Counted from the first letter of the stretch, positions 17,620 to 56,498 are shown. The stretch is DNA of 64,000 nt from a virus (IMGVR_UViG_647533160_000003), one strand, 5' to 3'. Notes: generated by a model not told the origin, from the letters alone. Program-made: numbers and translations.

Positions 17620-17624
17620 TTAAG

Positions 17625-23605: not shown

Positions 23606-23700
23606 TTAGAATAGCCTTAATGATAAGTAATCACTTACGATATTTGATGGTATATTTATATAAGAAGTTGAAAGCTCATTAGAAAACAAAGGAAAAACGC

Positions 23701-24938: not shown

Positions 24939-25142
24939 GTGCGTAAAGGATGTTTCGGCTCTCTTATCGCTGCTTCTGAAACTGGCAAGGCTTGTCTGGT
25001 GTGTCCAGACAAGCCCGATTGTCACCAATCAGCAAAAGAAGTTGCGATTTCGATGTATGGGAAGTTCGTAGGCTTCCCCAATGACAAAATCAAAAAAACC
25101 AGAAAGGTAAAAACACATGAAGGCTCTGATGGTTCGAACTGA
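24939..25142 (+). CDS. small Cys-rich hypothetical protein
   Basis: 67-aa ORF between AAA+ gene and polymerase, overlaps polymerase start. Confidence 0.3.
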   Translation: MRKGCFGSLIAASETGKACLVCPDKPDCHQSAKEVAISMYGKFVGFPNDKIKKTRKVKTHEGSDGSN

Positions 25143-30120: not shown

Positions 30121-30237
30121 TTTTTGATAGATAATAAGTAAGTACTGATCTATCATTTAACAGCTCGAAAGAGCCACGAATGAACGAAAGCCCAACGCGC
30201 ATAGCGCCATCGGCCAAATCACAACAAGGAGAAACAC

Positions 30238-31266
30238 ATGTCTAAGACATTACTTGATTTGCTTAACAAAACTCGTGAAGACATTGCCGCCAAACGTGGT
30301 AACAACGTTGATCTGACTCGCTTAAAAGACGGCGTCAACTATATCCGCATCTTCCCGAATAAAGACGACCCAAACGGTAAGTTCTTCCAGACTTTCGGTA
30401 TGCACTACGTTAAGTATCAGAACGAGGAAGGTAAAGAAGCAACCAACGCTTATATTTGTGAGCAACATACTCACGGTCGCGCTTGTCAGCTATGCGAAAT
30501 GGTGATGGAAGGTCGCGCTCGTCACAAGGGTAACAAAGCAATGGAAGAACGCATCGGTCAAATGCGTGCCACGCCTCGCTACCTGGTCAACGGCATTCTT
30601 TCAGCTCGTGAGGATTTCGCCGATGCAGAGAAATGCCAGTTAATCGAACTGCCTTCCACTGTATTCGATGATATCTGCAAAGCAATCACCGAAGACATCG
30701 CTGATGATATCGGTAATCCACTGAGCAAAGAGGAAGGCTACGCATTCCTGATTAAACGTACTGGTTCTGGTCGCGATACCAAATATGACGTCTCGCCTAA
30801 GCGTAAAGTCTACAAAGGCGATATCGAAGATAAATTCTGGAATACCCAGCATGACCTGATCGCATACGCAAATCAGGCTGATGAAACTCGTCTTCTCTCG
30901 ACAGTTCGCACTATGGGTCGTCTGATTGGCATCGCAGCACCAACTGCCTCTGCATCTGCACCAGCAATTTCCTCTACCGCGAAAACATCGACCGCGGCAC
31001 TGCCTGGATTTGGCTCTGTCACTGGTCATACGGAGGGTGCGACTGCTGTAGCAACCGCTCACACCCCAGCTTCTGAACCAACCAGTCTGGTTGATGAAGA
31101 AATCCTCCGAGCCGTTGAAACTGAATTTAAACCAGAGGCAAGTTCCGCTGCCGTTGCCGTATCAGTCAAAGAGTCTGAAGCAGTCGCAGCGACATCTGTA
31201 GCAGCCGCATCTGCGACGGAAGATGAAGGTCTGGATGATCTACTGAGAGAGCTTGACTCTCTGTAA
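30238..31266 (+). CDS. putative ssDNA-binding protein
   Basis: Cys/His cluster (CEQHTHGRACQLC), Ala/Ser-rich linker, acidic C-terminal tail EDEGLDDLLRELDSL. Confidence 0.4.
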   Translation: MSKTLLDLLNKTREDIAAKRGNNVDLTRLKDGVNYIRIFPNKDDPNGKFFQTFGMHYVKYQNEEGKEATNAYICEQHTHGRACQLCEMVMEGRARHKGNKAMEERIGQMRATPRYLVNGILSAREDFADAEKCQLIELPSTVFDDICKAITEDIADDIGNPLSKEEGYAFLIKRTGSGRDTKYDVSPKRKVYKGDIEDKFWNTQHDLIAYANQADETRLLSTVRTMGRLIGIAAPTASASAPAISSTAKTSTAALPGFGSVTGHTEGATAVATAHTPASEPTSLVDEEILRAVETEFKPEASSAAVAVSVKESEAVAATSVAAASATEDEGLDDLLRELDSL

Positions 31267-32540: not shown

Positions 32541-33614
32541 ATGGCAAAAGGAAAATCCGCACTGGCACTTGCTCTGAAAAAGAAAATCGGTAGCAACGAC
32601 GAAATACAGAAAGTAACTCATTGGATTGACACAGGCTTTCCTCCGTTAAACAAAGCGATTTCCGGTCGTTACGATGGCGGTTTCCCATGTGGTCGTATCG
32701 TAGAAGTATTCGGGCCGCCAAGCGCGGGGAAAACCTTTTTGGCAACGGCAGCAATGATCTCCGCTCAGAAACAAGATGGTCTGGCGGTATTCCTCGATCA
32801 TGAGAACAGTTTTGACGTTGGCCTGGCTGTCGCCAATGGTCTGAACGCAGATGAAGATGACGGCCAGTGGGTATACAAGCAGCCAGATACCTTCGAAGAC
32901 TCTGTGGAGTTGATCGGCACAATACTTAAATTGGTACGTGATGAAGAGCTTATCCCTGAATCAGCACCTATCTGTATCGTGGCGGACTCACTTGCGTCTA
33001 TGGTTCCGAACTCCAAAGCCGAGAAGTTCGAAAAGATGGCTGAAGGCACTGCCAAAGACAAAGATCAGCTAAACATGAATGACAATACGGCGCTGGCTCG
33101 TGCGACGAGTGCGAACTTCCCCACTCTGGCTTTGTGGGCACGCAAATACAACGCCTGCATCATCTTCTTGAATCAGGTTCGCACAAAAATCGGTGTAATG
33201 TTTGGCGACCCTACGACGTCACCAGGTGGCGATTCGCCGAAGTTTTACGCTTCTGTGCGCATCCGTCTCGGTGCATCGGTGATGAAGGATGGTAAAGAGA
33301 AGATCGGTCAGGACGTAGGCGCAGAGTGCATCAAAAACAAAGTTGCACCACCTTATGGCAAGTGCACCTGGAAATTCTACTTCGATCCTACTCGTGGCCT
33401 CGACGTTATCGAATCGCTCGTCGAGTACATGCTGGATGAAGGATACCTGCCAAAGAACGCAAGCGGTCGAGTAGAAATTGGCGACAAGAAATACACCAAA
33501 TCACAGATCGTCGAGATGTATCGGGAGAAGCCACTAGCTGAAATAATTGCGGCTTTGCAGGCAATCGACGACCGGAGAGCAAAAGACACCCCCACCGAGT
33601 CAGTAGAAGAGTAA
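32541..33614 (+). CDS. recA: RecA-family recombinase
   Basis: Walker A GPPSAGKT in RecA-like core; 357 aa. Confidence 0.8.
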   Translation: MAKGKSALALALKKKIGSNDEIQKVTHWIDTGFPPLNKAISGRYDGGFPCGRIVEVFGPPSAGKTFLATAAMISAQKQDGLAVFLDHENSFDVGLAVANGLNADEDDGQWVYKQPDTFEDSVELIGTILKLVRDEELIPESAPICIVADSLASMVPNSKAEKFEKMAEGTAKDKDQLNMNDNTALARATSANFPTLALWARKYNACIIFLNQVRTKIGVMFGDPTTSPGGDSPKFYASVRIRLGASVMKDGKEKIGQDVGAECIKNKVAPPYGKCTWKFYFDPTRGLDVIESLVEYMLDEGYLPKNASGRVEIGDKKYTKSQIVEMYREKPLAEIIAALQAIDDRRAKDTPTESVEE

Positions 33615-33618: not shown

Positions 33619-33644
33619 AAGGCGTCCACAGGACGCCTTTTTTA
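33619..33644 (+). terminator. rho-independent terminator
   Basis: AAGGCGTCC-ACA-GGACGCCTT hairpin plus TTTTTTA. Confidence 0.7.
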
Positions 33645-33706
33645 TCTCTTGAAAATATATAAGTACTTACTTATTATTTTCGCATAACAACCACATAGGA
33701 AAACAC

Positions 33707-33907
33707 ATGATCAAAATCTATCTATTGGCAGTAACCACAGGCCTTTCAGTGGCTCTCATCTACGGTTTACTGGTTCCGTCGCTGATTTCTACCAAGAGTG
33801 ATTTAGCCGTCATGTTTGGAATTATCGTTGGTTTTGGTGCTCCTGTAATCGGTCTTATTGCTGGTCGTAAATTTATTAACTCATTAATCAAAGCAAAGGG
33901 GAAATAA
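33707..33907 (+). CDS. small membrane protein
   Basis: 66 aa, two hydrophobic helices. Confidence 0.45.
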   Translation: MIKIYLLAVTTGLSVALIYGLLVPSLISTKSDLAVMFGIIVGFGAPVIGLIAGRKFINSLIKAKGK

Positions 33908-33910: not shown

Positions 33911-34741
33911 ATGAAGAAAGGTTTACTTGCAGTTGCTCTGGCGGCTATTTGCACAATGGGTCTTACTGGCTGTGATCGCGTGGAGCCTGGATACGTTGGC
34001 ATCAAAGTAAACAAATTAGGTGAAGACAAAGGGATTGGTGAAGTAGTTGGCGTTGGTCGCCAATGGACAGGTCTTAACACCGAACTTTACGTATTTCCGA
34101 CCTTCAAACAAATGAAGACCTACGACGAGCCGTTCACATTCCAGATGAGTGACGGTACTGCTATTGGTCACAAAATTGGCGTTGCGTATCTGGTTAATCG
34201 TGACAAGGTAACGACGGTGTTCCAGACCTATCGCAAAGGCGTAGACGATATCACCGAATCAGATCTGCGTCAGAAAATTGCCGACTCTCTAAACCGTTTG
34301 GCCAGCCGTATGACCACTGACTCATTTATCGACGGTGGTAAGGCACAATTGCTGGACAACGCACTGAAAGATATTCAGAAAGAGATGTCTCCGGTTGGTA
34401 TTGAGGTACTGAGCCTGTCATGGGTTGGAAAGCCTGATTACCCAAAAACCGTCATTGAATCGATCAACGCCAAAGTAACGGCTAACCAGCGTACTCTGCA
34501 ACGTCAGCAGGAAGTTGAACAACGTAAAGCTGAGGCGAATATGCTACGTGAACAGGCTAATGGTGAAGCTGATGCTATCCGTGCTCGTGCGCAAGCAGAA
34601 GCAGACGCCATTCGTCTGCGCGGTGAAGCTCTGCGTCAAAACCCGAACGTTATGGAACTGGAAGCCATCAATAAATGGAATGGCCAGTTACCGCAGTACA
34701 TGACTCAAGGGGCTAACACTCCTTTCATTACAGTGAAATAA
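33911..34741 (+). CDS. SPFH/band-7 (prohibitin-like) lipoprotein
   Basis: Lipobox LTGC; SPFH-like core; Ala/Glu/Arg-rich coiled-coil C-terminus. Confidence 0.65.
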   Translation: MKKGLLAVALAAICTMGLTGCDRVEPGYVGIKVNKLGEDKGIGEVVGVGRQWTGLNTELYVFPTFKQMKTYDEPFTFQMSDGTAIGHKIGVAYLVNRDKVTTVFQTYRKGVDDITESDLRQKIADSLNRLASRMTTDSFIDGGKAQLLDNALKDIQKEMSPVGIEVLSLSWVGKPDYPKTVIESINAKVTANQRTLQRQQEVEQRKAEANMLREQANGEADAIRARAQAEADAIRLRGEALRQNPNVMELEAINKWNGQLPQYMTQGANTPFITVK

Positions 34742-34757
34742 CTCCCCTAAAAAGTTC

Positions 34758-34783
34758 AGGCGTCCAGTTGGACGCCTTTTTTA
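34758..34783 (+). terminator. rho-independent terminator
   Basis: AGGCGTCC-AGTT-GGACGCCT hairpin plus TTTTTTA. Confidence 0.7.
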
Positions 34784-34832
34784 TCGCAATTATCTTATTA
34801 AGAAAACAATTTGTTTGAAAGGATAAGAAAAC

Positions 34833-35258
34833 ATGACAGCTATTAAGAAACTCTACGATGCTGCAAACGTGGCTCTGGATGTTATTGATGATGAAGTAGC
34901 AAAAGGCTTTCCTGAACCTGATTGGGCGCATCAGCTACGAAACGCTATCGCAGAAATGACCCCACCAGATCCAACCCCCGACGAGACAGACTGGCAGCGA
35001 TTCATCCGTATGTACGCTCAGGAAATAGGTCCAACGCCAACGGCAGAGCAGGCAATGCTGCTGAAATACTTCAAAGAGGCGGGAGAGGATTTACCAATTG
35101 ATGACTCAGCATATTGGTTCCACTGCGCATGGCGTAAGTATGACGTGATATTCACACAAGGCATGGGAAGCAAAGATATGGTTGTGTGGCATCTACTCCA
35201 TATAGACACAGCCGTTGACAGAGTTATTGAACAGTTTTTCCCTAAACAAGAAGATTGA
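34833..35258 (+). CDS. hypothetical protein
   Basis: 141-aa ORF preceded by AAAACAATTTGTTT box. Confidence 0.5.
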   Translation: MTAIKKLYDAANVALDVIDDEVAKGFPEPDWAHQLRNAIAEMTPPDPTPDETDWQRFIRMYAQEIGPTPTAEQAMLLKYFKEAGEDLPIDDSAYWFHCAWRKYDVIFTQGMGSKDMVVWHLLHIDTAVDRVIEQFFPKQED

Positions 35259-35313
35259 TCGCCTATTCATAACTAACAAAATAAGTAAACACTAACCACA
35301 AAAGGAAAAACAC

Positions 35314-35589
35314 ATGAGAGTTTTAGTTCGAATCGTTACCAGCACTGTCTATGACGTGTTTCCGCTTTTTATGGTCAAAGCCGATGGCCTTAACGACGAA
35401 GAAACTGACGCGCTGATCCAGCGTATTCTCGTTGAATATACAGGTCATGACGCTGATTCAGTGATGATTGATGATGATGGTGTTTGTTGGCATAACGGCA
35501 ACTGTTGGTACGTAGAAGAGACTCAACAAATCAGTGATGAAGATGCCGCACATCTTGAGCGTATTTTAAGCATCAGCACTTTTGAGTGA
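35314..35589 (+). CDS. hypothetical protein
   Basis: 91-aa ORF with conserved AAAGGAAAAACACATG start context. Confidence 0.45.
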   Translation: MRVLVRIVTSTVYDVFPLFMVKADGLNDEETDALIQRILVEYTGHDADSVMIDDDGVCWHNGNCWYVEETQQISDEDAAHLERILSISTFE

Positions 35590-35804
35590 GTTTACAGTAA
35601 AATTTATATAAGTTAGTATCTACCTATCATGAAGATTTTTATTGAATACTTGTTACTCATCGTGTCAATAGCTTTTGTCATCGACTGCATTTTCACTGGT
35701 GTCATTCGTAAAGTCTTTTCCCCGGTGAACGACGTAGTCATAAACGCTTTGGCTATCGTGCTCGTATTTAATTCAGCATTTGATGTAATCAAAGAGGTGG
35801 CAGC

Positions 35805-36140
35805 ATGAAGGCCATCCCATTCGCGCTGTTGTTCCTTTCTTCGATCGTTGTGGCCGACACCACTGTTTATCAGTGTGAAATGTCTGTAGCCGACGTTAAG
35901 AATGGCGCTCTTACCGACGTCATAAAAGCACCATATGGCGCGATGGTCGTAGACAGCGGCGACCAGTTCTATGTTGTGCGAGACGATCGAGTATTGTCAT
36001 CCCCATATCTCACAAACCGTAATGGCAAATTAACCGGCGTCGGAGAAGACCACTTCGTATACAACAAATACAAGGGCTTCTATGGCGTTCACGCTTCTCA
36101 GCAAAGCTACCTTTTCGATGACTGCAAGGAGGTTGGATAA
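35805..36140 (+). CDS. secreted hypothetical protein
   Basis: Signal peptide MKAIPFALLFLSSIVVA; 111 aa. Confidence 0.5.
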   Translation: MKAIPFALLFLSSIVVADTTVYQCEMSVADVKNGALTDVIKAPYGAMVVDSGDQFYVVRDDRVLSSPYLTNRNGKLTGVGEDHFVYNKYKGFYGVHASQQSYLFDDCKEVG

Positions 36141-36352
36141 TGGCATTAACACTGGCAGGTCTGGAAATCGAGAAAACAAGCGGATACTGGCGTGCTAAGG
36201 GTTTCAAGCAGCCTGGCATTCTTGAGCGTCTGGAACGTGAAGATGGGTATATCGTCCACCAGCGGCGTGAATGGCGTATGTACGATCCAGAAACAGGAAA
36301 ACTGACTACAAAAGCCGGAACACTTTGGGGTCTGTTGAAGAAAATACACTAA
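36140..36352 (+). CDS. hypothetical protein
   Basis: 70-aa ORF, ATGG overlap with upstream stop. Confidence 0.4.
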   Translation: MALTLAGLEIEKTSGYWRAKGFKQPGILERLEREDGYIVHQRREWRMYDPETGKLTTKAGTLWGLLKKIH

Positions 36353-36399
36353 ATGCAAACTGACTGCGGCACGTGCCGCAGTCATATTTCATAGTCGTC

Positions 36400-36933
36400 A
36401 CCGCTGACAGCATACACAATCAACTGCCGCTGATAGCATATCGAGAGTCTATCTCACCGCTCACAGCATACTTTACTCGATTTTTTACCGCTGACAGCAT
36501 ACTTAAGACATTGCATGAATAATATGTCCCGGTATGGGTATAACCAGAACAAAATTACCGCTGGCAGCATACGAAGGTCTGACATATACCATTAATTACC
36601 GCTGATAGCATATCCAAACAAAAATTCCTCAATAAAACACCGCTGACAGCATACGTTCTATCAGAGAGCAGCAGGCAATAAATGCCTTTCACTACAAGCA
36701 ATCAGCGCAATGGCAATAGAATGTTAGTGAGCGCAAACCTTTATGGAATGCACTCTTCGAGGTTAGTAACCACTGGGGAGGTATGACAGAGCATTGAGTG
36801 GTGATAGATGATTAACCGCTCACAGCATACGTTTATCTCACTATACCGCTGGTAGCATATCTTTTAACCGTTCACAGCATACTTTTCAGGAAAATAGCCG
36901 CTGATAGCATACATTTCACCGCTGACAGCATAT
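36400..36933. repeat. iteron array downstream of rep (incA-like): 12 copies of CCGCTGACAGCATAC
   Basis: 15-bp direct repeats starting at 36401, 36427, 36457, 36488, 36558, 36599, 36640, 36816, 36846, 36868, 36898, 36919. Confidence 0.8.
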
Positions 36934-38027
36934 CAAAGCAGTTTGAGACTATTGGAAAGGATCTCAATCATCTTGATATTTTCAGGCGTCAAATTCTGCG
37001 AAAGTTCAGTTATCTTGTTGATAATGTTCTGTTTAGCATCAATTTCCCCGGCTTTCTCATCTGGTTTTTTGGGTTCGATGTCTTCAGGTTTTGGCGGTGC
37101 GACTTTGAGTTTTGGATTGCGGCTGTGAATCTGGATATAGATCGACCGCCCCCGCTTAATCTCGCTATATTCGAGATAGCCCAAATCTTGGAGAGCTTTT
37201 AAGCCGTTACGTATAGTCTGATTCTGCGAGCTGACATTCCTGCTACTCAAATTGAGTCGCGCACGCAATCGAGCAAGCGATACCGGCGCAGGCTTGGTTG
37301 GAAGACTTTCGATGAAGGTGTACAGAGCCTGTGCTGTTTCTTTGCGTGGTAGCTTATTGATAACCTTTAACTGCAAAAGAACCTTATGGTCAAAGCGATA
37401 TAGTTCGGCCAGCTTCGGTTCTGCATAGAACACCACCGTATCTTTCTGCTCGTTGTAGTCCACGCTATTGATGAGGTGCACCATCAGAAGCGAGATCTTG
37501 TTAGAGCCGTCGACGTTCTTTTCTTCATACGTTCTCTGGAAAGACAGAGTTGTACGCATGATCTTCAAAAGACTGTTTGTAAGCCGGTCGCGGAGTGTTT
37601 TGCGGATCTGTGACGATGGATAGCCACAAAACTTCGCAAATTTCGTGATGCTTAACTCGACACGACCGTTAGGTTCGCCGTATTCTGCCAGCGAACGCAC
37701 AACGCCCACCCACGTTTTGAAATCATGATCCATGTCGAGACGAGGACCGGTTATCTTGATATCGGAATAGCCTTCAGAACGGGCTACTTCGAGCTGAACA
37801 AGCTCCTTTGAAGCATCGATCTCATTTGGCTTGTTACGCTTGCTGTATTTTGTCCCCTTGAGCGTGGGCACGAACAACCCCAGCCGCATCAACGCAATTG
37901 GTTGGACTGTATTGTTGCTATTAGGGACAAGTTCCCCTGTGTACAATTCAAGGGAACCTTCTTCAAAGTTGTCGAGATTATCTTCTACTTCTTTGTTATT
38001 TTTACCTTTTTTATTTTTTGTGGACAT
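36933..38027 (-). CDS. plasmid replication initiator (Rep), iteron-flanked
   Basis: 364 aa from Met 38027 (MSTKNKKGK); ORF open to 38147 but that extension runs through iterons; Rep call is positional only. Confidence 0.65.
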   Translation of the reverse strand: MSTKNKKGKNNKEVEDNLDNFEEGSLELYTGELVPNSNNTVQPIALMRLGLFVPTLKGTKYSKRNKPNEIDASKELVQLEVARSEGYSDIKITGPRLDMDHDFKTWVGVVRSLAEYGEPNGRVELSITKFAKFCGYPSSQIRKTLRDRLTNSLLKIMRTTLSFQRTYEEKNVDGSNKISLLMVHLINSVDYNEQKDTVVFYAEPKLAELYRFDHKVLLQLKVINKLPRKETAQALYTFIESLPTKPAPVSLARLRARLNLSSRNVSSQNQTIRNGLKALQDLGYLEYSEIKRGRSIYIQIHSRNPKLKVAPPKPEDIEPKKPDEKAGEIDAKQNIINKITELSQNLTPENIKMIEILSNSLKLL

Positions 38028-38048
38028 GTGGACACCTTTGTCATTCAA

Positions 38049-38149
38049 CCGCTGACAGCATACTTGATTTGCCGCTGGCAGCATACCAAAAACAGTTGGC
38101 AGCATACGGCGAACCGTTGACAGACTATCAATTACCGCTGGCAGCATAC
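38049..38149. repeat. iteron array upstream of rep (incC-like): about 5 copies
   Basis: Same CCGCTGRCAGCATAC family starting at 38049, 38072, 38093, 38114, 38135. Confidence 0.75.
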
Positions 38150-38189
38150 ATGAACATGGCTTCAGACCAGTCGTGGCGCGGCTTACAGC

Positions 38190-38265
38190 GATCGGGGATC
38201 TTATTTGATCTATACAAGGATCTATCTATGGATCTCTTTATTAGGATCTATCCTGTGGATATGTG
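38190..38265. promoter_or_regulatory. origin-like region: five clustered GATC sites plus DnaA-box-like TGTGGATAT
   Basis: GATC at 38197, 38207, 38219, 38231, 38245 within GGATCTAT-type repeats; TGTGGATAT at 38254-38262. Confidence 0.55.
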
Positions 38266-38348
38266 AATAATTAAAACAGGCATTTACTACCTTCGGCGCA
38301 CCTGGTGAGTTATCGTTGCCTCGGCTAACAATCACAGAAAAATGACAT

Positions 38349-38993
38349 ATGGATCTAAAACGCACGCGCTGGGTTCGTCGTCTTGAAAACGGCTCCTACA
38401 CTATCGAATCAAATTCCAACCTGAATAAGCAGAAGTTGCTTTGTGACATCTGCGGTATAGCGGCGAAGTGCCCGATCTACGAAACCAGAATTAAACTTGA
38501 TAAGGCTGGTGTGAACTTTCATTTAAACAGTTGCATCAGGTACGTTCCATTGCTCGCATTTCGTAAACCGATCATCGGATTGGATGCACCCTACTTCAAC
38601 ACACTCCGTTCAGGTGTGACGTGGCGAGATCGTTTATCACCAGACAAGCTGATTTGCCTTGTATCCGCAGACACAGGGAAAATCATCCGTTTTGGGAAAG
38701 TAGACAAGATTTACTCAGGCCCAGTAGACGAAATGTTGCGGAAACACAGCCGGTTTAATCATCTCTGTATGGGGGGTGAGAAAATCGAGAAGGTAGAAGA
38801 AGTGATCCGCAAATCCTACGGACACTTCCTGACCAAAGATAGCCTGCTCACCGCAATCTACATCAGACATGTAAAACGTGAGTTCGACCTCGAATACCAC
38901 AGTGAAGAAGAGCTTAACCTTGTTGATCCACGTCCAAAAGCTGGCGTCATAAGCATAAACGCAGCGCGTAAAAAGCCCACTGACGCGCTGTAA
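38349..38993 (+). CDS. hypothetical protein
   Basis: 214-aa ORF. Confidence 0.5.
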   Translation: MDLKRTRWVRRLENGSYTIESNSNLNKQKLLCDICGIAAKCPIYETRIKLDKAGVNFHLNSCIRYVPLLAFRKPIIGLDAPYFNTLRSGVTWRDRLSPDKLICLVSADTGKIIRFGKVDKIYSGPVDEMLRKHSRFNHLCMGGEKIEKVEEVIRKSYGHFLTKDSLLTAIYIRHVKREFDLEYHSEEELNLVDPRPKAGVISINAARKKPTDAL

Positions 38994-39247
38994 CCCTCCA
39001 GATCGTATATTGGCGTAGATAGAATCTACGCCTCCTCAAAATAGCTCTCATAGCGTTCTACAGTGATTCTGTCTTATTTTTAGTCATACAGACAAGCAAA
39101 CTTGCGCCACAATAAATAGGTATATACTTACTTATAAATTTTGTATATTAAGGTGCTAGTTTCATTCCTAACATACCGTTATGCATAGTTGTTTACCTTC
39201 TCATTGCTCTTAGAATTTGTATCAAAATAACCACAAAGGAAAAACAC

Positions 39248-40333
39248 ATGACTTTGCCATACGGCGTCATTTCTGACTGCCACTACCACAAATGGGATGC
39301 GTTCTCCACGACGAACGCTGAGGGGCTTAACTCCAGACTTGAAATACAGTTGGAGGCAACGAAAGAAGCAGCCATCGCCATGAAGAAGGCCGGTTGTAAG
39401 TACATGTTGGTTGCCGGTGATACATTTCACGTCCGAGGAACTGTGTCCCCTTCTGTTTTGCATTACGTAACTGAAACGTACAAGTGGATTATCAACGAGC
39501 TTGATCTGACAGTAGTAATGCTGGCCGGTAATCACGATCTTGAAACCAACGATTCAGTATATAGCGCCAACGCAGCAGCATCGCTGAGTTCTATCGGCGT
39601 GGTAATCGTATGTGGCAAACGCCCACACTCAATAAAAATTGGTGATGTGACTGTCCACCTGATTAGCTGGCGTAACAATCATGCGGAGCTTATCAGCGAT
39701 CTGAAAGCATTACGTAAGAGCGTAGAAGGTGATAATCATGACGTTGTTATCCATACATCCATTAACAAAGCCATACCAACAATGCCTGACGTCGGTATCG
39801 ATGCGCAGGAGTTAAAGGATATCGGCTTTCGTCTCGTGCTTAGTGGGCATTACCACAACCACAAAGAGGTCATTCCTGGAGTTATCAGTGTCGGTGCACT
39901 GACTCACCAAAATTGGGGAGATGTTGGATCTCTGGCTGGCTACATGATCGTAAACCCGGACGGCAGTTTCAGTCACTACGAAACCAGTGCGCCTAAATTC
40001 ATTAACCTGGAAGATGATGTTGCTGATGACCAAATTCGCGGCAACTACGTGCGTTTCCGCGCCGTAATTGAGAACGATGAAGAAGGCATTAAGTACCAGA
40101 ACATCCTCAAAACAATGGGTGCAAAAGGTGTCGTGTGCAACTTCATCCGTAAGTCATCAATGATGGAAGGGACAGCCAGCACAACTGAAACCAGCAAAAT
40201 CGATAGCCTGGGAGAGTCGGTATCTGCTTATTGCAAGATTGTCCACGATACTGACGGCGGATTTGATTTGAGCAAGTTGGATATTTTGTGTCAGGAAATC
40301 CTCACCGAAGCGGAGAGTTCGGAGGCTGTGTGA
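39248..40333 (+). CDS. SbcD/Mre11-like nuclease (calcineurin-like phosphoesterase)
   Basis: Metallophosphatase motifs GDTFH and AGNHD; 361 aa. Confidence 0.75.
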   Translation: MTLPYGVISDCHYHKWDAFSTTNAEGLNSRLEIQLEATKEAAIAMKKAGCKYMLVAGDTFHVRGTVSPSVLHYVTETYKWIINELDLTVVMLAGNHDLETNDSVYSANAAASLSSIGVVIVCGKRPHSIKIGDVTVHLISWRNNHAELISDLKALRKSVEGDNHDVVIHTSINKAIPTMPDVGIDAQELKDIGFRLVLSGHYHNHKEVIPGVISVGALTHQNWGDVGSLAGYMIVNPDGSFSHYETSAPKFINLEDDVADDQIRGNYVRFRAVIENDEEGIKYQNILKTMGAKGVVCNFIRKSSMMEGTASTTETSKIDSLGESVSAYCKIVHDTDGGFDLSKLDILCQEILTEAESSEAV

Positions 40334-40562
40334 AGCAAAGTCGTTATGGGAGCTTTCGAGACTTTGCCATCACGATGAAAAGACTTGAACGAGGCCAGAC
40401 GGTGATGTTTCACAAGCCCTACCCGCCACAAGGAAATCCCGTAGCGTTTTATCTTGGAAGGTTAACAAGAAAAGGCGTATTGAGGCGCAGATCCTTCCCG
40501 GCGCATACGGAGTTCAGATTGAAAGAAGGCCAAAAGCTAACACACGGTATCAGAGGTGTTAT

Positions 40563-42479
40563 ATGAAGTTTTTAAAGCTCCAGGTTGAGAATTTTATGGC
40601 TATCGCCAGCGCGGAGGTCGAGTTAGATCAGCGTGGTTTAGTGCTCATTCAGGGTGTTAATAGTGATGATAGTTCCGCATCAAGTAATGGCTCTGGAAAG
40701 TCAACTCTAATGAATAGCCTGATGTGGTGTCTTTATGGCGAAACAGCTCATGGTGTGAAGGGTGACGATGTGTTGTCTACCGACCATGAAAAGAACTGTC
40801 GTGTTGCAGTAACCATCGAGGATGAAGGCAAGAGATACGCAATCATTCGTCACCGTAAACACAAAGAGTTCAAAAATCGTCTTATCGTTCGTGGTGAAGA
40901 TGGCGATATGACGAAAGGCAAAGATGCGCTGACGCAGGAGTTCGTCGAGCGTCTGATCGGTGCATCTAAAGAGGTTTTCATGGCTTCCATCTATGCGAGC
41001 CAAGAAGCTATGCCAGATTTACCTGGAATGTCCGACAAAAACCTCAAAACCATCGTAGAAGAAGCCGCTGGCGTTGACAGACTGACACGCGCCTATGCTA
41101 TTGCTCGTGAGCGAGCTAATGCAGCTGCCGCACGTATGGATGTGGTTAAAACCAAATTGGAGTCGACAATCTCGACCATTGAGGCAACACAGTCAGAAAT
41201 TGAGTCCGCGAAAGCCTCCTCTGAATCATGGGAACAAGAGCGTTCTAAACGTTATGACGATGCCCTAGCTGGGCTGGCAAGTGCCGAAGTTGAGTTAACG
41301 GAAGTTGAACTTGAGATCCGCACTCTTCCCGAACAGATCCGTGATACCGAGAAGGCAATCGAAAGTGAGCGCAAAAAGTTAGCCTCAAAAGAAGAACATG
41401 ACGCTAAGTTGCTCAAAGTGCGTGGTGCGATAACTGATATTCGGGCAAGCATCAAAGCTACAGAAAATAGTCAGGCTGATGCAATGAGCCGCGCGCGCAA
41501 TTTTAAGACCAAAGCAGAAGAGGTTGGTACTAAAGTAGGATCACCATGCCCTACTTGTGGCAAAGCCTACTGCGAAGAAGATCTATCAACGGTGAAGGAG
41601 AATTTCATTGAACAAGCACGTCAGGAAATTGGTCAGGCGAAGACACTTGCAGAGGCAATGGCTAAACACAAAACGAATCTTGAGAAAGCGTTAAGCATTG
41701 AGTCTGCCCTTGTTAAAACGACACCTGATGTAACGGCTATCATCGCTCGGATTGAAGAGCTTACGAAACAACTCTCATCTTTGCGTCATCGTGAGAAGGA
41801 GGTTGTTGCTATTGAGTCTCTTGTTACTCGTGCTCGTACTGAGGTCGATCGTATATCAAAAGAGATTAATCCGTTTATTGCTCTTATCGCCAGACACGAA
41901 GATAACCTGGCATCCAGTAAGTCTACCTTCAAGTCCTTAAAAGACGAGTTAAAGGCTATTCAGGAACAAACGTTGCTATTGGAAAAAGCTCGTCAGGTCT
42001 ACTCTCCTGCAGGGGTGCGTTCTCATATTTTGACGTCTGTTACGCCTTTCCTGAATACACGCACAGCCGAGTATCTCAATACGTTGTCTGACGGGAATAT
42101 TACTGCTGAGTGGTCGACGATGGATGTCACTAAAAAAGGTGAGTATCGCGACAAATTCAACATTAGTGTGCAGAAGAAAGGTTCAAGTAAGTCGTTCCAG
42201 ACCCTCTCTGGTGGTGAGAAGCGGAAGGTTCGCATTGCGTGTTCTTTGGCATTGCAAGATCTGGTCAGTAACCGGGCGAGTAAAAACATCGATTTGTTTA
42301 TCGGCGACGAAATTGACGATGCACTCGATACAGCCGGTCTTGAACGCCTCATGGGTATTCTGGAGTCCAAAGCTCGCGAACGGGGCACTGTGCTGATTAT
42401 CTCCCATAAAGAGATGAAGTCATGGTTCCGCGAAACTATTACTCTGGAAGTTAAAGAGGGGCGCAGCTATGTCGTTTAA
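40563..42479 (+). CDS. SbcC/Rad50-like ATPase
   Basis: Walker A NGSGKST, coiled-coil, CPTCG zinc-hook-like motif, signature LSGGEKRKV, Walker B LFIGDEIDDALD. Confidence 0.85.
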   Translation: MKFLKLQVENFMAIASAEVELDQRGLVLIQGVNSDDSSASSNGSGKSTLMNSLMWCLYGETAHGVKGDDVLSTDHEKNCRVAVTIEDEGKRYAIIRHRKHKEFKNRLIVRGEDGDMTKGKDALTQEFVERLIGASKEVFMASIYASQEAMPDLPGMSDKNLKTIVEEAAGVDRLTRAYAIARERANAAAARMDVVKTKLESTISTIEATQSEIESAKASSESWEQERSKRYDDALAGLASAEVELTEVELEIRTLPEQIRDTEKAIESERKKLASKEEHDAKLLKVRGAITDIRASIKATENSQADAMSRARNFKTKAEEVGTKVGSPCPTCGKAYCEEDLSTVKENFIEQARQEIGQAKTLAEAMAKHKTNLEKALSIESALVKTTPDVTAIIARIEELTKQLSSLRHREKEVVAIESLVTRARTEVDRISKEINPFIALIARHEDNLASSKSTFKSLKDELKAIQEQTLLLEKARQVYSPAGVRSHILTSVTPFLNTRTAEYLNTLSDGNITAEWSTMDVTKKGEYRDKFNISVQKKGSSKSFQTLSGGEKRKVRIACSLALQDLVSNRASKNIDLFIGDEIDDALDTAGLERLMGILESKARERGTVLIISHKEMKSWFRETITLEVKEGRSYVV

Positions 42480-43212
42480 ATTAAGCCGCTCGCAGTTTTT
42501 GCAGGTGTTTGCGGTGATGCAGTCGATAAAACTGATCAATGGGCATACTTCCAATGGTGCGGCTCCACGTATTCTGTGGGGCAGCAATAATATTGACAAA
42601 GCACAATTCGCCCCGTTGCTTGGTCTAATATCCGAGACACCATTGATGCAAAGTTTGGAATCACTGCCGTCTGGATGTATTGCGCCGATCTTGATTAATC
42701 CTTTTGTTGAGGGAGGATATCTTCCCAACGTCGGACCTGGGTTTATCGCAACCCATGAAACTGAAGATCTTAACATTGATAGCGAAGGGTTCTTTGGGGC
42801 AATGGATGCGCATCTCTGTATGGCTTTCACGAACCTTATTCGACTTGCCAATAAGCGAGCGGATAGTTTGGCATCGCCAGGTGATGCTTTTACTGGTTTC
42901 CTTATCCAAAGGAGAGATAAAAAGTACAGTGCGGATAAACTACAGTTTATTGGTAAGTATGGGGAAATGGTAGAAATCGAACTTCAGCTCCCTCATGTTT
43001 TAGCAAACGATAGTGCAGACAGTCGGAGGCTGTTGGGCATCATGCGTCATTTCATAGCAAGTGGCGTTAAACATGCCGTAGATAAACGTGTCACGCAGGA
43101 AAATGAGTGTTCAGACTTTGCAAACTATCCCCAACCAACGTTGCAAACGGCAATAGTAGCCAATTCGTTGGAGGCGAGATTATTGGAAAACCCTATATGG
43201 GGAACATGGTAA
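42469..43212 (+). CDS. hypothetical protein
   Basis: 247-aa ORF overlapping sbcC-like stop. Confidence 0.5.
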   Translation: MSFKLSRSQFLQVFAVMQSIKLINGHTSNGAAPRILWGSNNIDKAQFAPLLGLISETPLMQSLESLPSGCIAPILINPFVEGGYLPNVGPGFIATHETEDLNIDSEGFFGAMDAHLCMAFTNLIRLANKRADSLASPGDAFTGFLIQRRDKKYSADKLQFIGKYGEMVEIELQLPHVLANDSADSRRLLGIMRHFIASGVKHAVDKRVTQENECSDFANYPQPTLQTAIVANSLEARLLENPIWGTW

Positions 43213-43221
43213 GGAGACTAT

Positions 43222-43791
43222 ATGAGTAAAAAAATCAGCGTAGTTGGTGTTGATCCCTCAATGAGCAACTTTGGGCTTGCTGTGGGCACTTTAGACCTTG
43301 AAACGGACGAACTTGAGATTCACGGCCTTACTCTTGTTGAGACTAAAGCGGGGAGTAACAAAAAGACAGTTCGTGTGAACAGCGACGATCTGCGCCGTGC
43401 CAGTGAAATATGGCGTGTTGCGAAGCCAATCATTGATAAGGCAAATATGGTTTTTTGTGAGCTACCGGTTGGGAGCCAAAACTCTCGTTCGCAGACGTCT
43501 TACGGTATTTGTATCGGTGTACTTGCGTGTGTGGATAAGCCATTGATCCAGGTTACTCCAAACGAAATTAAGCATTTTGTCGGCAATAAACTTACTACAT
43601 CGAAAGAAGAGATTATCCAGTGGGCTACGAAAAAACACCCTAAAGCACCGTGGCTGCGTCGTAAGCAATCTGGACAGGATGTTCTCGTGAACAAAAACGA
43701 ACATTTGGCTGATGCGGTGGCTGCCATCCATACCGGTATGCAAACGGATCAGTTCCGCCAGGTGCGCGATGTTCTTAAGTCTCTCATTTGA
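43222..43791 (+). CDS. RuvC-like Holliday junction resolvase
   Basis: VVGVDPSMSNFGLAV (RuvC motif I-like) and C-terminal HLADAVAAIHTG. Confidence 0.6.
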   Translation: MSKKISVVGVDPSMSNFGLAVGTLDLETDELEIHGLTLVETKAGSNKKTVRVNSDDLRRASEIWRVAKPIIDKANMVFCELPVGSQNSRSQTSYGICIGVLACVDKPLIQVTPNEIKHFVGNKLTTSKEEIIQWATKKHPKAPWLRRKQSGQDVLVNKNEHLADAVAAIHTGMQTDQFRQVRDVLKSLI

Positions 43792-43864
43792 TTTTATTGA
43801 TAGGTAAGTGCTTATCTATTAACATGGGCCACTATATTTAGTGGCCCTCTTTATTTGGTGATAC

Positions 43865-46180
43865 ATGATAAGCATCGTAAAACGTAACGGCCAAACAGAG
43901 CCGTTATCCGAAGAAAAATACAACCGCGTCGTAATGTATGGCGTAGAAGGCATTCGTGGCGTAAGCGCATCCGCTGTAGCAATGGGAGCTGCGGCCAGCA
44001 TTTTTGATGGGATGACCACCAGCCAGTTGCATGAGGCTTTGGTTAAATCTGCCGCTGATTTGATCTCACCAGAAGCACCAAATTACTCACAGGTGGCTGC
44101 CCGCCTGAACATTTTTAAAATCCGCAAAGATGCCTTCGGTCGTTACGACTATCCGAACTTCTACCAACACATTGTCAAGAACGTTAACAAGGGCGTTTAT
44201 GACAAGGATTTGCTGACACATTATTCGTTTGAAGAGATCGAAGAACTCGGCAATTACATTAAGCCGAAACGTGACGATCTTTTTGGCTATGCAGCTACGG
44301 TACAGTTGCAAAGCAAATACCTCGTTCAAAACCGTGTTACTGGAGAGATTCACGAAGGTCCGCAACATATCTATATGCTGGTTGGCATGTGTCTGTTCCA
44401 GAATTGGGAAGACGACTGCGCGGGCAAAACACGTATGGAGATGGTTAAAGGTTTCTATGACATTACAAGTACGTTCAAACTGTCTCTGCCCACACCAATC
44501 ATGGCCGGCGTCCGTACTCCAACCCGTCAGTTCTCCAGTTGTGTGCTGATTGAGTCTGGCGATAGTCTGAAAGGTATTAGTGCAGCTTCAGCCGCAATTA
44601 TCGACTACGTTTCACGTCGTGCTGGAATTGGTATTGGTTTTGGCCGTATCCGTGCGCTGGGCAGCGAGATCCGCAATGGTGAAGCCACCCATACCGGAGT
44701 TATTCCATTCCTGAAGCATTTCCAGACGGCTGTTAAATCTTGCTCGCAAGGTGGTGTTCGTGGTGGCGCAGCAACAGCGTTTTACCCGATCTGGCATCTT
44801 GAAGTTGAAAGTCTGCTGGTGGTGAAAAATAACCGTGGTATTGATGAAAACCGCGTTCGCCATCTTGATTACGGCGTCATGAGTAACCGTCTAATGTACC
44901 GTCGACTCGTCAGAAGCGAGAACATCACTCTGTTCAGCCCGCATGATGTGCCTGATATGTACGAAGCCTTCTTCACAGACCAGGAGCTGTTTGAAAAGCT
45001 GTACCATAAATACGAAGCCGATGATTCAATTCGCAAGAAGTCAGTACCTGCCATTGAGCTGTTCTCATCTCTGATGCAGGAACGAGCGTCCACGGGCCGA
45101 ATTTATATTGCGAACGTCGATCATATTAATGAGCATGGCGCTTTCATTCCTGCTCTTGCACCTGTCCGCCAGTCAAACCTGTGCATGGAGATCACTCTAC
45201 CCACTCGTCCACTGGCATTTACCGACGACCCGAACGGTGAGATCGCGCTATGCACTTTATCCGCTTTTAACCTCGGAGCCATCCGTTCACTGGAGTCTCT
45301 TAAAGAGGTGGCGTTCTATGCCGTTGCTGCACTGGATTCGTTACTGGATTATCAAGACTATCCGATGGAGGCAGCCGAAGTGCCTGCCAAAGCTCGTCGT
45401 AGCTTGGGAATTGGTGTAACCAACTTTGCTTATTACCTGGCAAAGAATGGCGTTCGTTATTCTGATACCGCTGGCAATAAACTGGTGCATGAAACGTTCG
45501 AAGCTATCCAGTATTACCTTCTTGATGCCAGCTGCCGACTTGCTGAAGCAAAAGGTGAGTGTGACTGGTTTGAGCAGACCAAGTACGCAATTGGTCAGTT
45601 GCCGATCGACCATTACCGTTCTTCATTAGACGAAAGTGGCGAAACCAACTTTGAGTTAAAGATGCCGTGGGAAGAACTGCGTGAACGTATTGCAAAATAC
45701 GGCCTTCGCAACTCCACACTGACGGCACAAATGCCATGCGAGACTTCCAGCCAGATCACTAATTCCACCAACGGCATCGAACCGCCTCGTGGCCCGGTGT
45801 CGGTGAAATCTTCTAAGGACGGCATCGTTAAGATGGTCGTGCCTGAGTTTGAAAAACTGAAGGAACAGTATGAATACCTGTGGGATATGCCGGACAACCG
45901 CGGCTATCTGACAAAGGTGGCGATCATCCAGAAGTTCTTTGACCAGGCTATTTCAGCCAATACCAACTATGACCCTTCTCGCTTTGAAGGCGATAAAGTC
46001 CCAATGATGACGCTACTGTCAGATTTGCTTCTCGCCTACAAGATGGGAGTTAAAACGCTTTACTACCACAACACCAGAGATGGGGCAGGAAAGCGTGATG
46101 ACGACGAACCGCAGAATCCACTGACGCAAGCTGTAGCCGTCGAGCCAGAAGATGAGTGCGACGGAGCCTGCAAAATCTGA
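43865..46180 (+). CDS. nrdA: ribonucleotide reductase large subunit (class Ia)
   Basis: N-terminal ATP-cone, active-site NLCMEI, C-terminal Cys pair; 771 aa. Confidence 0.9.
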   Translation: MISIVKRNGQTEPLSEEKYNRVVMYGVEGIRGVSASAVAMGAAASIFDGMTTSQLHEALVKSAADLISPEAPNYSQVAARLNIFKIRKDAFGRYDYPNFYQHIVKNVNKGVYDKDLLTHYSFEEIEELGNYIKPKRDDLFGYAATVQLQSKYLVQNRVTGEIHEGPQHIYMLVGMCLFQNWEDDCAGKTRMEMVKGFYDITSTFKLSLPTPIMAGVRTPTRQFSSCVLIESGDSLKGISAASAAIIDYVSRRAGIGIGFGRIRALGSEIRNGEATHTGVIPFLKHFQTAVKSCSQGGVRGGAATAFYPIWHLEVESLLVVKNNRGIDENRVRHLDYGVMSNRLMYRRLVRSENITLFSPHDVPDMYEAFFTDQELFEKLYHKYEADDSIRKKSVPAIELFSSLMQERASTGRIYIANVDHINEHGAFIPALAPVRQSNLCMEITLPTRPLAFTDDPNGEIALCTLSAFNLGAIRSLESLKEVAFYAVAALDSLLDYQDYPMEAAEVPAKARRSLGIGVTNFAYYLAKNGVRYSDTAGNKLVHETFEAIQYYLLDASCRLAEAKGECDWFEQTKYAIGQLPIDHYRSSLDESGETNFELKMPWEELRERIAKYGLRNSTLTAQMPCETSSQITNSTNGIEPPRGPVSVKSSKDGIVKMVVPEFEKLKEQYEYLWDMPDNRGYLTKVAIIQKFFDQAISANTNYDPSRFEGDKVPMMTLLSDLLLAYKMGVKTLYYHNTRDGAGKRDDDEPQNPLTQAVAVEPEDECDGACKI

Positions 46181-46285
46181 CATATGGTGGGGTATAACCC
46201 CACCTTCTCTTTGATTTGTAAGCCTTGTTTAAACAAATAAGATAACAACTTGTTTAAACACATCAAAAAGCAAAAGGAAAAACAC

Positions 46286-47428
46286 ATGTCATATTCAACG
46301 TTCCGTTTGGGTGCTAATGATGCAACCAAAGAGCCTATGTTCCTCGGACAATCTGTCAACGTGGCACGTTACGATCAGCAAAAATACCGTGATTTTGAAA
46401 AGTTGATTGAACGTCAATTGTCTTTCTTCTGGCGGCCGGAAGAAGTTGATATTTCGAGCGATCGTATCGACTTCAACACGAAGCTGCGGGACCACGAACG
46501 TCACATTTTTCTGAGCAATCTCCGTTATCAAACGTTACTCGACTCAGTTCAGGGACGTAGCCCAAATGCAACGCTGCTGCCGCTTATCTCTATTCCTGAA
46601 CTGGAAACGTGGGTTGAAACATGGTCTTTCTCTGAGACTATCCATAGCCGCAGCTACACCCACATTATTCGTGGCATGGTGGACGATCCGAGCATTGTTT
46701 TTGACGGTATTGTTACGGATGAAGAAATCATCAACCGAGCGATCAGTATCTCTGCTGAATATGACAGGCTTTATGGGATGACCTGCGAGCGCCAGTCGTT
46801 AGGTGAGAAAGAGTTTGAACGTCTGTACGTAAATGAATATGGCTGGGAGCCATACCCTTTGCATCGTCAGCTTTTCCGCACGTTGGTGTCCATTAATGCG
46901 CTTGAGGCGATCCGTTTCTATGTAAGTTTTGCATGTACGTTTGCCTTTGGCGAACGGAAGTTGCTTGAGGGTAACACCAAAATTATGCGCTTTATTGCCC
47001 GTGATGAAGCTCTGCATTGCGAAGGAACTGAACGCATGATCCGCTTCATGCGTACCGGTCGCGAAGGTTTATTGTGGAAAGAGATTGCTGCTGATGAAGA
47101 AAACGTCATTTACGACACCATGAAATCAGTCGCCGAACAAGAAATGAACTGGGCAGACTATCTCTTCAAAGACGGTTCGATGATTGGTTTAAACGCGGAT
47201 ATTCTGAAGACCTATGTAAAATACCGAACCAATCTGGCTATGAATCGTCTTGGCCTGAAGGCTTTATTTCCAGAAGTTACCACTGATCCGCTGGTCTGGA
47301 TGAACAAGTGGTTGTTAACCGACACACTGCAAATTGCACCACAAGAGGCAGAGCAAAGCACATATCTGGTAGGTCAGATCGATTCTACCGTGGATAAGGC
47401 TTCTCTAAGCCAGTTTGCAGACCTGTAA
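46286..47428 (+). CDS. nrdB: ribonucleotide reductase small subunit (class Ia)
   Basis: Close to E. coli NrdB over most of its length ([43 protein letters not shown]); start at Met 46286, ORF-track start 46250 is an upstream extension. Confidence 0.9.
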
Positions 47429-48470: not shown

Positions 48471-48546
48471 TCTATCTGGCCTTGTTCCCACAATAAATGT
48501 AAACTCACTTAATGAATAAGTGATTACTTATCTTTGTGAGGTTTTT

Positions 48547-53198: not shown

Positions 53199-53380
53199 CG
53201 TTCCCCTACTGAAAATAAAGCCCATAGAGAGCTTTATAGTGCTGGGTAAGCTAACCCATACCCAGCACCACAAAAACGCGCCAGAGAGCTTCTTGTTCGC
53301 ATTTCTGGCGCGTTTTATTTGATTGCCATACATGAAATCAAATGCAAAAATAGGTAATCACTTACCTATCGAGAAAGAAG

Positions 53381-55567: not shown

Positions 55568-55712
55568 GTAAGTATTTACCTATTATATTAAATCATGTAT
55601 CTTATCGGCGTCAGGATGACAATGTGTCGGTAAGACACAGTTCCAGGATGGAACGAGAAAGGCGGCTGGCAATCGCCAGCCGCAACTCTTTCTGACACTG
55701 GATGGAGTCCAC

Positions 55713-56405: not shown

Positions 56406-56498
56406 CGGTTGTTAGTGCATATGCATTGACCGTCTTTGCGTAAGCAATTTATGTAACCAGAAAACAATTTGTTTTGACAAATAGCAAAAGGAAAACAC

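Follow-up and report, generated by a model that had tools for sequence, protein, structure and literature searches.

A start-codon context that recurs on about a dozen genes of an SSU5-like phage-plasmid is probably a translation-enhancer start region of the C/A-rich, ACA type, by analogy with enhancers described in Salmonella and E. coli, and it is carried by the genes that open transcription units for replication, recombination and nucleotide metabolism. Its design is an AAGGA followed by an A run and then by AACAC directly abutting the ATG. The simplest reading makes the motif a strong, unstructured start for translation, of a type already known, and not a new regulatory system. Judged by comparison of related sequences, the motif is real, is under purifying selection at positions -8 to -1, and is not the product of recent copying.

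The stretch of viral DNA analyzed here (IMGVR_UViG_647533160_000003; 64,000 nucleotides, here the window) was placed by megablast and by whole-window alignment. With positions 34000-46000 as the megablast query, the matching phage records included Escherichia phage Cyrano (OV696614; 97.8% identity), further E. coli phage-plasmids (98%), and Salmonella phage SSU5 and Klebsiella relatives (about 77%). Aligned over its whole length, the window matches Cyrano in collinear blocks at 95-98% identity, with a few replaced segments between them. On these alignments the window is an SSU5-like phage-plasmid with 96-98% identity to Cyrano, and it contains the half of such an element that holds the genes for partition, replication, recombination and nucleotide metabolism, with nearly all genes on the + strand. 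Cyrano itself is an SSU5-like phage-plasmid of E. coli LF82; each cell keeps about 5.5 copies of it, and ciprofloxacin induces it (PMC9928086). Gene starts in the window were transferred from the annotation of Cyrano and SSU5. An Rfam search of the window returned three tRNAs.

The flagged sequence, accacaaaggaaaaacacATG, is the start of an SbcD-like nuclease gene. Its 16-mer AAAGGAAAAACACATG has 10 matches in the window when up to three mismatches are allowed, and all 10 lie on the + strand. Shuffled controls averaged 1.08 matches and had at most 4, and none of 100 shuffles reached 10. Three copies of the 16-mer are exact (at 35301, 39235 and 46273). The start contexts at 5711 and 33707 are not among the 16-mer matches; they are looser copies that retain an AAGGAAA(G/A)CAC-ATG design. 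The sequence AACACATG occurs 13 times in the window, against 3.2 expected, and 10 of its 11 + strand copies are gene starts, while CACATG has 22 + strand occurrences, 13 of which are gene starts. The remaining + strand AACACATG, at 11499-11506, considered as a thirteenth copy of the motif, lies inside the coding end of an upstream gene in both the window and SSU5, and was set aside as a chance match.

The original prediction had listed near-identical start contexts at ten sites, and all ten indeed end in the ATG of a real gene that is also annotated with this start in Cyrano, SSU5 or both. Two further copies (7120-7135 and 25104-25119) were absent from the list. The twelve copies are as follows, where motif A and motif B denote two upstream palindromes described below.

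5692-5713, + strand: start of the DnaB-like helicase gene, aaaaaacaaaggaaagcacATG; copy identical in SSU5; motif A palindrome at 5679-5691 just upstream
7114-7135, + strand: start of the primase leader, aaaccacaaaagaaaaacacATG; 16-mer match at 7120-7135, AAAAGAAAAACACATG
23682-23703, + strand: start of the CobS-like AAA protein gene, agaaaacaaaggaaaaacgcATG; motif B at about 23620-23640
25098-25119, + strand: start of the DNA polymerase III alpha gene, aaaccagaaaggtaaaaacacATG; 16-mer match at 25104-25119, AAGGTAAAAACACATG
30219-30240, + strand: start of the gp32-like SSB gene, aatcacaacaaggagaaacacATG; 3' end of a conserved structured leader
33688-33709, + strand: start of a small membrane-protein gene, caaccacataggaaaacacATG; 3' of a terminator at 33619-33639 and of a TTGAAA-17-TATTAT promoter-like site containing motif B
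35295-35316, + strand: start of the gene for a 91-aa hypothetical protein, aaccacaaaaggaaaaacacATG; exact 16-mer
39229-39250, + strand: start of the SbcD-like nuclease gene (the flagged copy), aaccacaaaggaaaaacacATG; exact 16-mer; motif B at 39116-39135
46267-46288, + strand: start of the ribonucleotide reductase beta gene; exact 16-mer; follows a terminator at 46186-46204 and motif A at 46243-46255
56480-56501, + strand: start of the TerB/TciA-like gene, atagcaaaaggaaaacacATG; motif A at 56462-56474
57203-57224, + strand: start of the gene for a 187-aa hypothetical protein, aagcattaggaaaaacacATG; motif A at 57191-57203
59661-59682, + strand: start of the Ead/Ea22-like gene, aaacgataagagaaaaacacATG; motif B at 59618-59637

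The claim that conservation extends beyond a generic Shine-Dalgarno (SD) sequence was borne out by an ATG-anchored logo of the twelve copies. Positions -1 and -3 rank highest, at 1.8 bits each, followed by -5, -6 and -9 at 1.4 bits, and all five carry at least as much information as the SD positions. The AAGGA part of the motif is itself often preceded by (A)ACCACA or AACAAA. Over positions -22 to -1, the motif genes are 60% A, 20% C, 12% G (the SD) and 7% T, whereas the other genes are 36% A, 15% C, 26% G and 24% T. The predicted unpaired probability over -15 to +3 is 0.66 for motif genes versus 0.50 for the others (p = 0.001), and ACA triplets in the interval from -30 to +1 average 3.0 per motif gene, compared to 0.64 per other gene and 0.49 expected.

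The distribution of the motif among genes is as distinctive as its sequence. Every copy precedes the first cistron after an intergenic gap of at least 40 nt, and none was found on internal cistrons of the window or on late structural genes of SSU5. Of the 36 window genes preceded by a gap of at least 40 nt, 13 have CAC at -3 to -1, against 0 of 20 internal cistrons (Fisher p = 0.002), a second respect in which the conserved signal goes past the SD and ATG. The pattern recurs in an independent gene set, the RefSeq annotation of the complete SSU5 genome: CAC is found at these positions in 13 of the 62 first cistrons that lie outside the structural region, in 0 of 38 internal cistrons and in 0 of 29 late structural genes. 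The internal and late genes of SSU5 have GGAG- or GGGA-type SDs and show no base preference beside the ATG. Together, the shuffles and the contrast between first and internal cistrons rule out chance or base composition as the source of the motif.

The motif marks only about a third of first cistrons. Its genes are mostly involved in replication, recombination or nucleotide metabolism, yet sister genes for ligase, RecA, NrdA and ThyX lack it. The suggestion that the motif denotes a co-regulated gene class is therefore weakly supported by gene function and weakened by the many sister genes without it, as well as by its association with two different palindromes.

Ten of the twelve copies lie no more than about 130 nt downstream of a promoter- or operator-like palindrome, either motif A or motif B. 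Motif A is GAAAACAAnTTGTTTAA, with 8 sites against 0.43 expected. Motif B is a 20-bp palindrome, ATAGGTAAGyrCTTACCTAT. Allowing 4 mismatches, it has 12 sites where 0.3 would be expected, and looser matching gives about 16. Motif B overlaps sigma-70-like hexamers (for example TTGAAA-17-TATTAT at 33649-33677, TAGATA-17-TATCAT at 30128-30156 and TTGATA-17-TAACAT at 43797-43825), and intrinsic-terminator-like hairpins stand 5' of several motif copies (33619-33639, 46186-46204 and one upstream of 7133). Taken together, these elements indicate a common layout of terminator, promoter/operator, short leader ending in the motif, and then the gene or genes. Since the start context is found behind both motif A and motif B, it marks no single transcriptional class. 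We also considered whether motif B could be an RNA hairpin of the leader and rejected this: pair 4-17 shows 21 mismatches versus 19 Watson-Crick pairs, and with arms that do not covary, motif B behaves as a DNA palindrome. The window encodes an HTH repressor at 20548-20934, a candidate for binding motif B.

Comparison with relatives indicates that the start context itself has been kept by selection. The same genes bear the motif in SSU5 and in the Klebsiella phage pJN2-26. In ungapped comparisons of the window with these two relatives, identity over -5 to -1 reaches 0.93 in motif genes, against 0.56 in fourteen other first cistrons (p = 3e-7); over -8 to -1 it is 0.89 versus 0.57, or 0.93 versus 0.69 when the sequences are aligned. 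The aligned flanks from -17 to -80 are equally diverged in both gene sets (0.75-0.78), and identity at third codon positions, taken over the first 60 codons of motif genes, is just 0.45. Among orthologues the distance from GGA to ATG varies from 5 to 10 nt, and is mostly 7-8 nt, because the A run changes length; AACAC always abuts the ATG. The copy before the DNA polymerase III alpha gene is identical across the window, SSU5 and Klebsiella.

Wider sampling in IMG/VR shows how far the motif can drift. Among 39 distinct sbcD upstream sequences, the leader is kept down to 85% protein identity; in a group at 78% identity the leader is unalignable, and its 3' end still reads ggaagaacacATG. In close relatives, variation in the motif consists of C/T exchanges at -1 and -3 (aatacATG, acatATG, atatATG), and the A residues at -2 and -4 are invariant in 77 distinct sbcD and ssb sequences, so that the loosest description of the motif is A-Y-A-Y-AUG. 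The exact 16-mer is present in at least 120 IMG/VR stretches, most of them from unrelated contigs, over a G+C range of 26-67%. It opens an open reading frame (ORF) of at least 50 codons in 74 of the 81 occurrences examined, again mostly in unrelated contigs, which argues that it works as a start site across many backgrounds. Among the IMG/VR matches listed, many copies per genome are found essentially in SSU5-like contigs only.

Two of the copies have unusual surroundings. In SSU5 and pJN2-26, the primase copy opens a conserved leader ORF of 22-23 codons (MSLYGIQ..RLI.ILP.K) whose stop codon overlaps the primase ATG (ATGA), and the primase ATG there has no SD of its own. This stop/start coupling is as expected of a ribosome-loading module. 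In the window, the leader ORF and the primase gene are fused in frame. The ssb leader, in turn, is conserved more than the ssb coding region and is predicted to form two invariant stems with variable loops, followed by the unstructured motif; its minimum free energy has a z score of -3.4. We looked for covariation in these stems and saw none, because the stems are invariant.

How might such a start region work? The motif would be a family-specific translation initiation region in which a moderate SD (AAGGA), a variable A run and AACAC (more loosely, A-Y-A-Y) stand 5' of the AUG. The leader is almost all A and C, so it does not pair with itself and holds several ACA triplets, and the SD would sit inside an unstructured stretch made of A and C only, flanked on either side by ACA. 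SSU5-like phage-plasmids may use this arrangement as a portable, high-efficiency ribosome-loading site for first cistrons, which need a de novo translation start, while downstream cistrons would rely on ordinary GGAG-type SDs and translational coupling. A/C composition, accessibility and ACA content could raise the initiation rate, and 30S docking, possibly via protein S1, is a plausible route to the enhancement.

This proposal builds on experimental precedent. Experiments in Salmonella and E. coli have established that C/A-rich leaders and ACA triplets enhance translation and that their position is flexible (PMC3879156, which also cites Sharma et al. 2007 on C/A-rich enhancers). In yifK, changing one ACA lowers expression by up to about 90%; in dppA, removing four ACA triplets reduces it by a factor of more than 100; the enhancement survives shifts in position with respect to the SD and AUG; and 30S docking via S1 has been proposed for these enhancers (PMC3879156). 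A Kozak-like preference does not account for the CAC. Reporter and profiling data from E. coli favor A at -3 and -6, and in a T4 gene 32 reporter the change of A(-3) to a pyrimidine costs about 40% (PMC6847099). The motif has A at -6 and a conserved pyrimidine at -3, usually C, and its CAC is thus unexplained by a rule of A at -3.

Selection on -5 to -1 is also tighter than absence of structure alone requires, and a sequence-specific binding partner could equally be its source. Some of the C-to-T variants remove an ACA, so the ACA itself is not strictly required. The pyrimidine at -3, the tight selection on -5 to -1, the loss of ACA in variants and the partial coverage of genes together leave room for such a partner.

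One form of this idea takes the shared leader as the operator of a phage-plasmid trans-acting translational regulator resembling T4 RegA, or has the gp32-like SSB bind the unstructured leaders, which would tie replication-protein synthesis to the amount of free SSB. We regard this as unlikely, even though it would offer an account of the conservation at -5 to -1 above that of other first cistrons, which the A(-3) rule does not explain. It would also suit the mostly replication and recombination functions of the motif genes, their position in a module with T4-like parts (gp32-like SSB, UvsY), and the leader of ssb itself, in which two invariant stems precede an unstructured C/A-rich start region. 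The T4 gene 32 operator has a layout resembling that leader. A Pfam search of 30 window proteins, all small unknowns included, returned no RegA, RegB-like or RNA-binding family, and none is named in the annotations of Cyrano, SSU5 or pJN2-26, the part of the element beyond the window being judged from the annotation of these relatives only. The motif is unlike the AU-rich RegA sites of T4 and breaks the rules of RegB/S1 sites, and the invariance of the ssb stems, with no covariation, counts against the SSB version. That the exact 16-mer serves as a gene start in many unrelated phages does not point to a binding site specific to one lineage. Nor is a complementary RNA encoded: with 10- to 13-mers at 1-2 mismatches, no conserved reverse-complement match was found in the window, SSU5 or pJN2-26, and Rfam places no known RNA family at the motif, its hits in the window being tRNAs only. 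Two copies of CATGTGTT, at 61675 and 61792, were considered as an antisense source and rejected as part of an unrelated AT-rich cargo region. The earlier suggestion that the motif is the target of a translational regulator thus found no support in the 30 window proteins or in encoded RNAs.

A host factor could play the same part. The C/A-rich leaders might be targets of the Hfq-dependent small RNA (sRNA) GcvB, silenced via its G/U-rich R1 region, a reading drawn from duplex modeling that would couple translation of phage-plasmid replication genes to the nutritional state of the host. GcvB is present in 5426 of 5426 complete E. coli genomes searched, with its identity confirmed by Rfam; its known targets include ACA or C/A-rich enhancers beside the SD; and predicted duplexes of R1 with -30 to +10 average -17.3 kcal/mol for motif genes versus -13.6 kcal/mol for others (p = 0.004). 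These energies are thermodynamic predictions, however, and any C/A-rich sequence pairs with a G/U-rich one. Several genes without the motif score equally well or better, and the C-to-T variants in relatives would weaken the pairing, so we hold this reading to be very unlikely. More generally, a post-transcriptional regulon in which one trans-acting factor (SSB, or host GcvB with Hfq) binds the AACAC-AUG leaders seems to us quite unlikely, although, if true, it would set translation of the replication and recombination genes in one step at the switch between plasmid maintenance and lytic growth.

Two further readings treat the motif as something other than a site of translational control. It had been suggested that the repeats are module-boundary sequences promoting gene shuffling, that is, recombination substrates or mobile regulatory cassettes comparable to the PeSLs of T4-type phages. 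Near-identical repeats do stand at the 5' end of many transcription units, and one SSU5-specific gene insertion starts just past motif A (window 34816/34845), near a start context. A low-complexity motif of 16-22 nt is nevertheless very short for homologous recombination, and when module boundaries were compared with Cyrano, SSU5 and Klebsiella, the breakpoints (for example 10163, 39114, 29669, 57874 and 1593) fell at or upstream of motif A or B and not at the start context. Across three genera the motif instead keeps to one set of orthologous genes, and no junction falls at it in the 77 distinct regions upstream of sbcD and ssb. Since breakpoints and motifs alike are intergenic, their proximity is by our estimate not significant. 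We consider shuffling highly improbable. The last reading concerns the host toxin MazF, which might cut at ACA to inactivate these mRNAs, or trim them to a near-leaderless form, under stress or abortive infection. The MazF leaderless-mRNA model is itself contested. As read from the sequence, ACA triplets at -4 to -2 and -2 to +1 overlap or abut the AUG in every AACACAUG copy, and MazF is specific for ACA with a preference for sites near start codons (PMC3879156). In relatives, though, the variants AUAC and AUAU lack one of these triplets or both, and exposing essential genes to a host toxin has no obvious advantage, which makes this reading scarcely credible.

Whatever its mode of action, the motif is a signature for locating true start codons, and the points where transcription units begin, in the SSU5-like phage-plasmids, a family that is common in the clinic and carries resistance genes. 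A probable start mis-annotation and the conserved leader ORF before the primase gene have already come to light through it. As a compact, natural C/A-rich start that is selected at -5 to -1 and departs from the A at -3 rule, it also offers a test case for the role of AUG-adjacent bases. If it is true that a trans-acting factor reads it, the motif would provide a regulon-level translational switch in a phage-plasmid. Its practical value is modest.

We found no description of the motif in the searchable literature on SSU5-like elements, and it invites comparison with several known systems. Two familiar start regions resemble it: that of T7 gene 10 (AAGGAGAUAUACAUAUG) alternates A and pyrimidine in the spacer that abuts the AUG, and that of lacZ (CACACAGGAAACAGCUAUG) has a CACA run 5' of an AGGAAA SD. 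Both are unstructured and G-poor; they are single genes and not a repeated class, and we treat the likeness as a lead only. The antisense control of ribosome binding sites by P1 c4/ant differs from the motif, which has no complementary RNA in the window, SSU5 or pJN2-26. The PeSL cassettes of T4-type phages (PMC2839356, PMC4122927) likewise place conserved regulatory sequences before many genes and at the borders of variable modules. PeSLs, however, are promoter-plus-stem-loop units of tens of bases to which indel junctions map, whereas the motif is 16-22 nt long and does not lie at junctions; motifs A and B are the nearer analogue.

The T4 RegA operators and RegB/S1 sites (PMC1702504; reviewed in PMC3014915) are also a shared sequence over the ribosome binding sites of many early and replication genes, and RegB/S1 sites likewise consist of a GGA followed by an A-rich single-stranded stretch. 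A RegB/S1 site requires GGAG or GGAU and then a 7-nt A-rich stretch that excludes C, and GGAA is poorly cut (PMC1702504). The motif has GGAA as its SD, followed by AAACAC with a conserved C, and we rejected its identity with RegB/S1 targets on these grounds.

The closest parallel is with the ACA and C/A-rich enhancers of yifK, dppA and gltI (Yang, Figueroa-Bossi and Bossi 2014, PMC3879156), which share with the motif a single-stranded C/A-rich sequence and several ACA triplets beside the SD, and which act in the same hosts (Escherichia and Salmonella). These enhancers have no strict spacing to the SD and AUG, and in the motif, too, the SD-AUG spacing varies (5-10 nt), but AACAC is fixed at the AUG, a position not reported for the known enhancers. 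The known enhancers also lie upstream of the SD, while the motif lies partly between the SD and the AUG. Unlike them, it recurs on about 12 genes within a single mobile element and across three host genera. With these differences, and by analogy with the enhancers just described, the motif most probably both works like and is a C/A-rich ACA-type enhancer start region.

The start context carried by some 12 genes of the window (AAGGA, an A run, AACAC and ATG) is found well outside its immediate relatives. In numerous unrelated viral contigs, with G+C contents of 26 to 67%, genes start at the exact 16-mer, AAAGGAAAAACACATG; in IMG/VR it is present at 120 loci or more (L089-L208), and it opens an ORF of at least 50 codons in 74 of 81 occurrences there. 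Because it opens ORFs in unrelated contigs, we regard the 16-mer as a generally usable start site that is not private to SSU5-like elements.

Two palindromes also recur upstream of gene starts. Within the window, about 16 intergenic regions carry the 20-bp palindrome ATAGGTAAGyrCTTACCTAT (motif B):

First eight motif B sites: 4895-4914, 10160-10180, 11040-11059, 13522-13541, 17162-17181, 20963-20982, 23620-23640, 30134-30153
Other eight motif B sites: 33655-33674, 35608-35627, 39116-39135, 43800-43819, 48512-48535, 53350-53369, 55564-55583, 59618-59637

When up to 4 mismatches are allowed, 12 matches are found in the window against 0.3 expected. Salmonella phage SSU5 has 20 sites, some of them between late genes, and two scanned stretches of the Klebsiella relative pJN2-26 hold 17. 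Motif B overlaps sigma-70-like -35 and -10 hexamers, and one copy adjoins a gene for a putative HTH repressor (minus strand, 20548-20934), expressed in lysogeny. An RNA hairpin was considered and rejected: the two arms show no covariation, and motif B thus behaves as a DNA operator.

The second dispersed palindrome, GAAAACAAnTTGTTTAA (motif A), lies 14 to 48 nt upstream of gene starts, at eight sites in the window where 0.43 would be expected:

Motif A sites: 1650-1666, 5677-5693, 21465-21477, 34802-34818, 46241-46257, 56460-56476, 57189-57205, 57906-57922

It is concentrated upstream of small accessory genes, is also present in SSU5 (17 sites) and pJN2-26 (16 sites), and in SSU5 precedes the first late gene at two sites. 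A second regulator probably acts at motif A.

Among 38 distinct relatives, the 5' leader (30157-30237) of the gene for a gp32-like SSB shows stronger conservation than the coding region. Two stems, GCUC-GAAA-GAGC and GCC..GCGC-AUA-GCGC..GGC, are invariant while the loops vary, and the leader folds with an MFE z-score of -3.4; no covariation was seen in the stems among the same 38 relatives.

The primase gene is likewise preceded by a conserved element, a leader ORF of 22 to 23 codons:

Window, 7133-7201
SSU5, 35837-35908
Klebsiella counterpart (L087), 11227-11295

An ATGA stop/start overlap couples this ORF to the primase in SSU5 and Klebsiella; in the window and in Escherichia phage Cyrano it is fused in frame with the primase. 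The Cyrano annotation places the primase start at an internal GTG (window 7199), and has probably missed the true initiation site.

Between the nrdA start and the motif B/promoter-like site upstream of it (region 43797-43865), there is a stem-loop rich in G+C with a T run on its 3' side (43826-43847). Its outline is kept in SSU5 and pJN2-26, and it may act as an attenuator of the nrdA leader.

Other features of the window, several of them in segments that set it apart from Cyrano, are as follows:

14289-14532, three tRNA genes in tandem
16263-17129, minus strand, AbiGi-family protein gene, in a low-G+C island
15025-16236, minus strand, 403-aa ORF adjoining the AbiGi-family gene
17781-19241, minus strand, 486-aa ORF, in the same island
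8306-9451, minus strand, Sel1-repeat protein gene
60807-61400, MarR-family regulator gene, in segment 59950-64000
61400-61930, AT-rich gap, in segment 59950-64000

The low-G+C island (14365-19296; 32% G+C) is missing from Cyrano, has the tRNA cluster on one side and the integrase gene on the other, and is probably abortive-infection or defence cargo. Cyrano's tRNAs at the corresponding place are annotated Asn, Thr and Ser. The 1.9-kb segment with the Sel1-repeat gene (8299-10163), whose right-hand junction falls at a motif B site, takes the place of 30 bp of Cyrano. The RecA-like product has 357 aa in the window and SSU5 versus 779 aa in Cyrano, whose sequence is about 1.3 kb longer at the point matching window 32732-32742, perhaps through an intein or homing element. 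Segment 59950-64000, not common to Cyrano, is probably cargo as well; 3' of its AT-rich gap, G+C rises to 51% and the ORFs listed within the window (at least 50 aa) are only short and mostly on the minus strand.

Two of these putative regulatory features recall known systems. The ssb leader may serve in autoregulation as an operator akin to the one of T4 gene 32. The motif B sites appear to form a network of dispersed operators of the P1 C1 kind.
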